A stretch of 64,000 nt of DNA from Escherichia coli (GCF_011045215.1 NZ_CP049201.1), one strand, 5' to 3'; counted from the stretch's first letter, positions 1-558 are shown. The notes: generated by a model from the sequence alone, not told the origin. A program made the numbers and translations.

Positions 1-558
1 GATAAAACCCCATCCTTCCACCAGAGAATTACCAAGAGCATCAACAGAGTGTTTTTTGCTTGAGGATTTCATCAAAAAAAGCAGTCCTGTTTTGTGCAGG
101 AATACGCGATACAAGTAACCATTACCCAGTGCAGGCAACAGGGAAAAAATTCCACTAAAGATTTGCCCACCAGCCACAAATGCAGCATTGTTGGCGATGC
201 ATTCAGGTTTGATTTGCCGTAATACCCACTGGCGACCCTCTGCGGTCGCCTTTGTTTTATCCAGAACGAAACCAGACATCAGATTGATCAGCACCGGACG
301 ACCAGAAAAAATCGTATCAGTCGCGCCACCAGCAAAATTTTTTGCTTTCCGGACAGCGTGGCCAACGATATTTTGCAGCAAAATATTCTGCATTTCTGGC
401 GTGCTGTAGTAACGGTGATCAGCGCCTTCACATTGAACGAACTTGTCGCTAAAATTCACCCACATAGCAAACATCGCGGTGCTGTAGGTAATTCGTTCAC
501 AAAGGCGCTCCGGCAACGGGGCGCTTTTTCTTTTTGTAACGGTCAGAGCGTTACACAT
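1..558 (-). CDS. Hypothetical island protein, N-terminal 186 codons only; ORF runs off the left window edge
   Basis: Hand translation of the minus strand from ATG at 558..556 is open to position 1 (MCNALTVTKRKSAPLPERL...). Its start overlaps the stop of the upstream AntA-like gene (ATGTGTAA), suggesting translational coupling. Not in the ORF track because no stop lies in the window. Function unknown. Confidence 0.5.
   Translation of the reverse strand, partial: MCNALTVTKRKSAPLPERLCERITYSTAMFAMWVNFSDKFVQCEGADHRYYSTPEMQNILLQNIVGHAVRKAKNFAGGATDTIFSGRPVLINLMSGFVLDKTKATAEGRQWVLRQIKPECIANNAAFVAGGQIFSGIFSLLPALGNGYLYRVFLHKTGLLFLMKSSSKKHSVDALGNSLVEGWGFI

Follow-up and report, generated by a model that had tools for sequence, protein, structure and literature searches.

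A long stop-free frame in a PICI-type satellite at yifB/comM of Escherichia coli is probably an eta-like read-through bridge

What is the function of an open frame that starts on the stop codon of an AntA-like gene and is still open where the sequence ends? The question is raised by positions 1–558 of a stretch of 64,000 nucleotides from E. coli (NZ_CP049201.1; hereafter the window). The best explanation, to which we assign a probability of roughly 0.6, is that the frame is an eta-like read-through bridge in a PICI-type satellite inserted in yifB/comM, and that it is kept open for translation itself.

The frame, its start and its island

The earlier note described an open frame of 186 codons on the minus strand, running from an ATG at 558–556 to position 1, overlapping the stop of the AntA-like gene and translationally coupled to it. 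The frame was recovered with 0 stops when the sequence was re-read. Since the other two sense frames of 1–558 hold 6 and 12 stops, its openness is beyond chance. The antA gene ends in CAT GTG TAA, so that antA and the long frame share ATGTGTAA; this overlap and a GGAGG support the coupling, which is probable. The features at this edge of the window are as follows.

1–558, minus strand: first 186 codons of the putatively eta-like long stop-free frame, which continues off the window
551–558, minus strand: start/stop overlap ATGTGTAA, with the long-frame start at 558–556 and the antA stop (TAA) at 553–551
568–572, minus strand: Shine-Dalgarno-like GGAGG, 9 bases 5' of the ATG, read from the sequence
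551–1351, minus strand: AntA/AntB-family gene, 266 aa, the upstream coupling partner (Pfam PF08346, E 5.8e-23)
85–101, minus strand: weak 5-bp hairpin and a run of seven T, at codons ~153–163 of the long frame and on the same strand

The junction ACAGCCATGTGTAAC is identical in 38 of 43 related loci, and the GGAGG and an ATG overlapping the upstream stop are conserved. A start coupled to the stop of an upstream alpA/Bro gene, one mark of an eta-like gene, was thus found in the form of ATGTGTAA and GGAGG. Islands that carry alpA without antA have the start coupled to alpA, the long-frame ATG lying 20 bases past the alpA stop and being accompanied by GAGG. In four loci (L050, L055, L058 and L099) the long frame begins at the AntA start (MNTGY...), an N-terminal segment of AntA being fused to it in frame. 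Were the hairpin at 85–101 to act as a terminator, ribosomes translating the frame should suppress it.

The gene order in the window is ilvGMED..., a yifB/comM fragment, int (1956–3206), alpA (1404–1592), antA and the long frame. The island has split yifB/comM, because the N-terminal 69 codons alone (3352–3561, minus strand) adjoin int; in ETEC4077 the remainder of yifB is found at the far end of a sister island. The site recalls comM of Acinetobacter, an insertion site of resistance islands. Related islands lie in yifB, beside abgR or at tRNA-Pro. Downstream of AntA, the sister islands carry the long frame with at least one opposite-strand small gene inside, then a nested Icd-like gene, two small genes (one of them DUF4222) and a D5_N/DUF5906 primase or a RepA helicase, with ProQ, PerC, DUF2213 and a lytic transglycosylase (SLT) further on. 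Where AntA is identical to that of the window, the primase/helicase (D5_N + DUF5906) starts ~1.7 kb past the AntA stop, and the D5_N/DUF5906, ProQ, PerC and SLT genes fall within ~12–14 kb. Judged by gene content (int, alpA in the same direction, replication module), the host island appears to be of the Gram-negative PICI type, for which we took a size of ~10–15 kb, the order int, alpA and primase/replication, and no full structural and lysis set.

Two perfect tandem 20-base units (AACAATAAGCTACAACAAGG) were seen at 1880–1919 (minus strand) of the window, in the 360-base gap between int and alpA, and are candidate binding sites for AlpA or, as arm-type sites, for the integrase. In this gap Rfam gave no int-alpA RNA motif (RF02996) at E ≤ 1; in locus L012 the motif lies between int and alpA at 1824–1891, with 45.5 bits, over its gathering score.

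The continuation of the frame was read from other contigs. An exact-sequence look-up of the window's AntA protein returned four contigs, including L047 (Logan SRR11014969_16), which has 0 mismatches to window 1–3300. L047 extends the long frame to at least 559 codons, and the contig itself ends there, 12 residues into an Icd-like domain (NNFIWRFIALSTA). The IMG/VR locus L011 is collinear with L047 (527 of 559 residues identical), and its frame closes at 598 codons with an Icd-like domain containing VFAARIRQ and the end ...VFAARIRQEVEHV. By comparison with L011, window 1–558 would be the 5' third of a frame of about 597 codons. An extended contig had been proposed as part of the check in the earlier note; with L047 open to at least 559 codons and L011 closed at 598, the stop or frameshift that it feared just past the window edge is absent.

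The profile NF033153 (phage_ICD_like) matches the last 44–48 residues of six relatives, with E 1e-18 to 1e-21 and 66.7–74.9 bits against a threshold of 25 bits, which places these ORFs in the family; one of the six, L003, matches the DNA of window 1–175 at 98.9%. The 186 window codons gave no match to NF033153, because the domain sits off the window, and the terminal 44–48 residues are the sole recognisable protein domain of the long frame. Nested in the same frame at its 3' end is an Icd/Kil-like gene of 67 or 121 aa with its own ribosome-binding site. In L047 this second mark of an eta-like gene was found as an ATG at 12222 preceded by AGGAG. The frame ends in the Icd-like motif in 42 of 43 complete loci. 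Two loci, L096 (683 codons) and L102, have a long frame whose end is sequence of the gene after the Icd-like gene, and four others (L057, L094, L119 and L120) have two different Icd-like domains each.

Among 5.8 billion proteins searched, 186 relatives turned up, almost all of them from Escherichia; many of these, with lengths of 283–324 aa, bear the name 'ash family protein' or 'host cell division inhibitor Icd-like protein' in their sources, PGAP among them. In four complete genomes (L001–L004) the homologous frame has 433, 413, 597 and 456 codons; PGAP annotates the last 67–191 codons alone, or nothing, and the window-type region is unannotated. Window 400–560, the conserved 5' stretch, is present in 433 of 5,426 complete E. 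coli genomes. E. coli 55989 is among them, with allele B at 299871–300034 of NC_011748.1.

Elements on the opposite strand

The long frame is stop-free across two opposite-strand terminators, a small-RNA promoter, three small genes and an AT-rich stretch. Conservation within 1–558 falls on the plus strand, whose elements in this part of the window are listed below.

2–118, plus strand: 3' end of a putative 60-aa ORF, stop at 116–118; 3 distinct copies found
231–260, plus strand: intrinsic terminator T1, GGCGACC-CTCTGC-GGTCGCC (231–250), then TTTGTTTTAT
427–455, plus strand: predicted sigma-70-like promoter, TTCACA (427–432), 17 bases, TAAAAT (450–455)
462–538, plus strand: predicted 77-nt cis-antisense RNA, complementary to long-frame codons 7–32
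501–540, plus strand: intrinsic terminator T2, a 12-bp stem (501–528), then TTTTTCTTTTT; the stem is identical in 86 loci

The 60-aa ORF is the last of three small plus-strand ORFs that the long frame crosses antisense. T1 probably ends the ylcI-type operon, and in other alleles it carries the compensatory pair GGCCACC/GGTGGCC. Read on the minus strand, T2 spells the invariant peptide KSAPLPERL. The spacing of promoter and terminator was surveyed in 86 loci, which comprise 31 distinct sequences and at least four alleles. In these, a –10 element (TAAAAT, TATAAT or TACAAT) precedes T2 by 50 or 53 bases and is separated by 17 bases from a –35 element. A scan of one genome per species for exact T2 with its 9 upstream bases gave 0 matches.

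The 5' 25–30 nt of the predicted RNA differ completely between alleles, with at least four allelic 5' ends, while the 3' 50 nt are conserved. Folding of four alleles gave an unpaired linker and a terminator hairpin in all four and a short 5' stem-loop in three. In alpA-coupled islands the 3' end of the predicted RNA reaches the start codon of the long frame. On these sequence features, we think that a real 77-nt cis-antisense RNA is quite probable. Rfam holds no match for it, and it is annotated in none of the 433 E. coli genomes carrying the region.

Several candidates for kinship or targets of this RNA were rejected. The terminator hairpin matches ctRNA_p42d with 19 bits (E 0.85), which we attribute to its being a hairpin of generic form. 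For a second target in trans in the downstream mRNA (cf. P4 seqA/seqC), duplex energies were no better than those of shuffled probes, with z from +0.1 to –2.1, and given these energies a match to the Icd ribosome-binding site seen by eye is not claimed.

Further along, the long frame crosses an inverted cassette consisting of a YlcI/YnfO-type gene and one or two small ORFs of 59–64 aa. The YlcI/YnfO-type gene matches NF041551 (E 8e-18) and weakly resembles RHH-type Rv0623-like factors, and its product is a putative repressor. The YlcI-like protein gave no tblastn match in phage records. The 59–64-aa ORFs form a family (FxLExFLK...TWKTSRHGDVEE) seen in 89 loci beside the YlcI-like gene and antisense inside the long frame, for example at 11474–11653 (minus strand) in L047 and at 15684–15878 (plus strand) in L003; PGAP calls them 'hypothetical proteins', and no family match was found.

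Openness, amino-acid constraint and competing explanations

Stop avoidance was assessed in several samples. The first comprised 39 IMG/VR loci, four genome loci and the window (42 distinct ORFs of 186–598 codons), and held 0 stops in 18,290 codons of the long frame versus 916 and 1,069 in the other frames. Among 78 distinct ORFs ending in an Icd-like domain, 75 have 215–805 codons, and three are short (64, 98 and 185 codons) with a stop upstream of the Icd gene. Many of these loci are kin by descent, and the independent evidence is accordingly some 39 sequence clusters and four other genera, not 78 trials. In the ~39 non-redundant 30-codon clusters (~1,170 codons) there are 0 stops versus 74 and 87 in the other two frames. 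In Cedecea, Pantoea, Hafnia and Klebsiella, whose loci were found with a narrow alignment and not one of all Icd-like types, frames of 299–349 codons run antisense through the YlcI-like gene to an Icd-like end, with 0 stops versus 13–23 in the other frames.

When loci were instead fetched via the YlcI-like gene, the antisense frame was open through it in 79 of 80. Across 50 distinct ylcI copies this antisense frame has a single stop, and the two alternative antisense frames have 98 and 210. The long frame is always in the antisense phase in which the wobble positions of both strands coincide, and synonymous choices in ylcI therefore suffice to avoid stops. This phase is the easiest to keep open; by our estimate, chance alone would leave it open in about 1 in 20 genes of 100 codons. 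Nonsense changes are absent from at least 133 substitution events over 88 codons of the window-type N block, where at least 4.5 would be expected (P about 0.01), which matches selection against stops. The long frame thus appears to be kept open by selection, openness being strongly favoured and not absolute, since 3 of the 78 variants carry a stop and 1 of the 80 ylcI loci is not open antisense.

Amino-acid constraint was compared between the N block, taken as 55 codons between plus-strand elements, and its neighbours. Variable sites are given by codon position 1/2/3.

AntA: pN/pS 0.24; variable sites 15/22/60 (third-position excess)
Icd-like domain: pN/pS 0.12; variable sites 2/9/18
YlcI-like gene: pN/pS 0.36; variable sites 66/57/88
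Window-type N block: pN/pS 0.73; variable sites 24/30/27

The pN of the N block is 0.11, near the pS of the neighbouring genes (0.14–0.19), and a coding signature was found in none of its frames on either strand (pN/pS 0.53–0.89). The window part thus seems to evolve almost neutrally at the amino-acid level, and as 0.73 is below 1, there may be weak constraint on the protein. The earlier note could assign no family to the frame, and in Pfam, NCBIfam and PHROGs the 186 window residues were indeed without a match; the best match, to a hopene cyclase, had E 0.079 and was taken as chance. Pfam Phage_ASH (PF10554) gave nothing at E ≤ 1 in the window fragment or in six full-length relatives, the threshold being 26 bits and the positive control, P4 Eta, scoring 82.4 bits. 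AlphaFold2 modelled the window part with a mean pLDDT of 41.6 and no residue at 70, which is weak evidence because the alignment was shallow, with 14 sequences.

These data bear on the possibility that the product of the frame is a true Bro/Ash-network protein with several domains, in which an active N-terminal part (a regulator or anti-repressor, for example) is fused to the Icd-like effector and the variable middle reflects domain swapping. Such a protein would agree with the source names of the long forms, with passages of PMC10111431 in which P4 eta and related genes count as Bro-network members that swap domains, with an N block conserved across islands at 65–97% amino-acid identity, and with a pN/pS of 0.73 that is not 1. 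We nevertheless consider it rather unlikely. There is no excess of variation at third codon positions (24/30/27) and pN is near the pS of the neighbours, no family match (Phage_ASH included) or residue at pLDDT 70 was obtained, the invariant peptide stretches coincide with hairpins and the promoter of the other strand, and the 'swapped domains' of the middle are antisense translations of real genes.

The neutral evolution of the upstream part would also suit a spacer, as in the proposal that the long frame makes an N-terminally extended Icd/Kil-like toxin, inactive or retargeted, in which the length or presence of the extension matters and not its sequence, any effect on Rho being secondary. 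The short toxin-like gene is always nested in the frame, and P4 makes both Kil and Eta. The extension ranges from ~150 to 740 codons, however, which is odd for a defined pro-peptide, and we regard this proposal as unlikely.

It is also conceivable that the frame is untranslated, with its function residing on the plus strand (two terminators and the small RNA) and its openness arising as a by-product of plus-strand constraints and the wobble-on-wobble phase. The plus-strand elements are conserved, one with a compensatory change, no frame of the N block looks coding, and PGAP leaves the region blank in the four complete genomes. Yet hairpins and a promoter do not account for 215–805 stop-free codons across AT-rich promoter DNA and unrelated cassettes, nor for the open frame in four other genera, where the exact T2 stem sequence and SAPLPER motif tested are lacking. 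The GGAGG and the ATG overlapping the upstream stop are conserved, and the long frame ends exactly at the Icd-like stop in 42 of 43 complete loci. An untranslated frame is therefore quite improbable.

The guesses of the earlier note, a replication initiator or primase or else the first accessory (cargo) gene, drew on position alone, with replication genes lying further downstream in sister islands, and they are very improbable indeed: the completed ORFs of L011 and L003 end in an Icd-like domain, no signature of an initiator, primase or helicase was found in the window part, replication is assigned to another gene (D5_N/DUF5906 or RepA-helicase), and the frame, eta-like and with an Icd/Kil-like end, belongs to the regulatory module.

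A read-through mechanism modelled on P4

The read-through bridge that we favour is modelled on P4, and the comparison with P4-like satellites that the earlier note had suggested was the step that solved the identity of the frame, through the eta/kil layout. The link came via the NF033153 profile; when 50,697 phage records were searched by tblastn with a relative of 597 aa, only weak partial matches came back, none of them to P4. P4 eta has an ATGA overlap with orf88 (an alpA homologue) and 199 codons, the last 65 of which are Kil in the same frame. Residues 146–193 of Eta match NF033153 (E 1.2e-20), and residues 22–146 match Pfam Phage_ASH. According to passages of PMC10111431, citing Forti 1999, P4 eta is coupled to the alpA homologue and translation of Eta prevents termination, with read-through as the result; within eta lie the CI and seqA RNAs and a constitutive promoter, and Kil is a truncated product, full-length Eta being made only from the upstream late promoter.

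The locus studied here is similar in that the start is coupled to an alpA-family gene, a short Icd/Kil-like gene is nested at the 3' end of the frame, and immunity regulatory elements lie inside the frame, where an upstream inducible promoter must read through them. It differs from P4 in several respects. Eta has 199 aa against about 597 here (215–805 in relatives), and its N-terminal part is Phage_ASH, which the long frame lacks. The P4 CI/C4, isrK/seqA and c4-a1b1 RNAs are on the eta strand, whereas the candidate RNAs here are cis-antisense; no same-strand C4, isrK or other immunity RNA was found in the window, L047 or L002 with Rfam at relaxed thresholds, under which P4 as positive control gave C4 (74.9 bits), isrK (60.8 bits) and c4-a1b1 (44.1 bits). 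In addition, the long frame here crosses an inverted protein-gene cassette of the YlcI/YnfO type.

By analogy with P4, a helper phage would turn on the alpA promoter and ribosomes would load at the coupled start. They would then follow RNA polymerase over ~1.7 kb of otherwise untranslated antisense RNA, and their translation would keep Rho off the transcript, so that the Icd-like and replication genes could be reached. Read-through would probably also interfere with the repressor operon, which is convergent, or run into it. At rest, pairing of the predicted 77-nt RNA with codons 7–32 may block or uncouple translation, and with translation blocked, leaky transcripts would be terminated. The allelic 5' ends of the predicted RNA might set the specificity of immunity. 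The G/C skew along the RNA, a proxy only, gave no clear C-rich Rho-loading site. A satellite-wide immunity switch, in which an unconstrained bridge of 215–805 codons is gated by a 77-nt cis-antisense RNA with specificity-setting alleles, is a tentative and somewhat doubtful extension of this mechanism.

The nested genes of P4 eta/kil and the Bro zone of PICIs were known already. Relative to the literature searched, what is new is the great length of the frame, its passage antisense through real genes, the neutral amino acids and the candidate cis-antisense RNA: the searches returned no report of a stop-free frame antisense through ylcI-type genes, nor of near-neutral amino-acid evolution of the frame or of a cis-antisense RNA. 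If true, the P4 principle, by which translation of a nested frame overrides immunity termination, extends beyond a single model satellite to PICI-type islands with a protein repressor cassette in place of the CI RNA. Selection would then act on openness alone, across antisense genes, on a scale unreported for bacteria in the literature searched. The locus would offer a natural case for transcription–translation coupling, Rho polarity and convergent-transcription switches, and the predicted allelic antisense RNA is a new candidate for satellite immunity and satellite–satellite exclusion. There is also a consequence for annotation. Across the 433 E. coli genomes, annotation passes over the frame, shortens it to the nested gene or names it as a protein of 283–324 aa. 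Analyses of protein families and of domain swapping would be misled if such entries were taken for real proteins with several domains.

Two further systems invite comparison. The P1/P7 immI operon (c4 RNA – icd – ant) combines an Icd-type inhibitor, an Ant-type gene, coupling and an antisense-type RNA; the P1 icd is short, about 73 codons, and the c4 RNA, encoded on the same strand, is trans-acting. The likeness to the present locus lies in the Icd-like domain family, shared by name. The gene order is reversed, however, with ant before icd here, and no C4 match was found with Rfam. In the passages concerned, Mageeney et al. (2023, PMC10111431) give the order of Gram-negative PICIs as Integration, Bro, Replication and Late, name AntA as one family of the Bro network and describe immunity RNAs that can sit inside Bro genes. 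The place of the long frame in the island fits this Bro zone.

The region just 5' of the nested gene was inspected in L047. At 12020–12150 it is AT-rich, and a promoter-like site TTGAAA-17-TAATCT flanked by GTGAATACC/GGTATTCAC was seen there by eye; a consensus promoter scan of L047 did not list it and gave only a 9/12 site at 11885–11913. Also by eye, a perfect 10-bp palindrome (GTGAATACCA...TGGTATTCAC) and a third half-site were observed around the promoter-like site, and at the equivalent place L001 has different repeats, TGTATATC(T)CAC. The repeats of both loci look like allele-specific operators and are candidate binding sites for the YlcI-like protein.

L047 also holds, at 12155–12227 (minus strand) and ~0.8–0.9 kb outside the window's left edge, an element that matches SymR (RF01809) below threshold and over the whole model (E 2e-5); it cannot be filed as SymR, because its 37 bits are below the gathering score of 61. 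Its place is exactly that of an antisense to the nested 121-aa Icd-like gene's ribosome-binding site and ATG, and regulation of that gene may therefore resemble that of a type I toxin. In geometry the element recalls SymR itself, a 77-nt RNA that covers, in antisense, a toxic gene's start codon and ribosome-binding site; the element here is, however, sub-threshold, off the window and present in few loci. The nested Icd-like protein is presumably not SymE-like. Near-full-length SymR-like copies occur in only about 6 of the loci examined.
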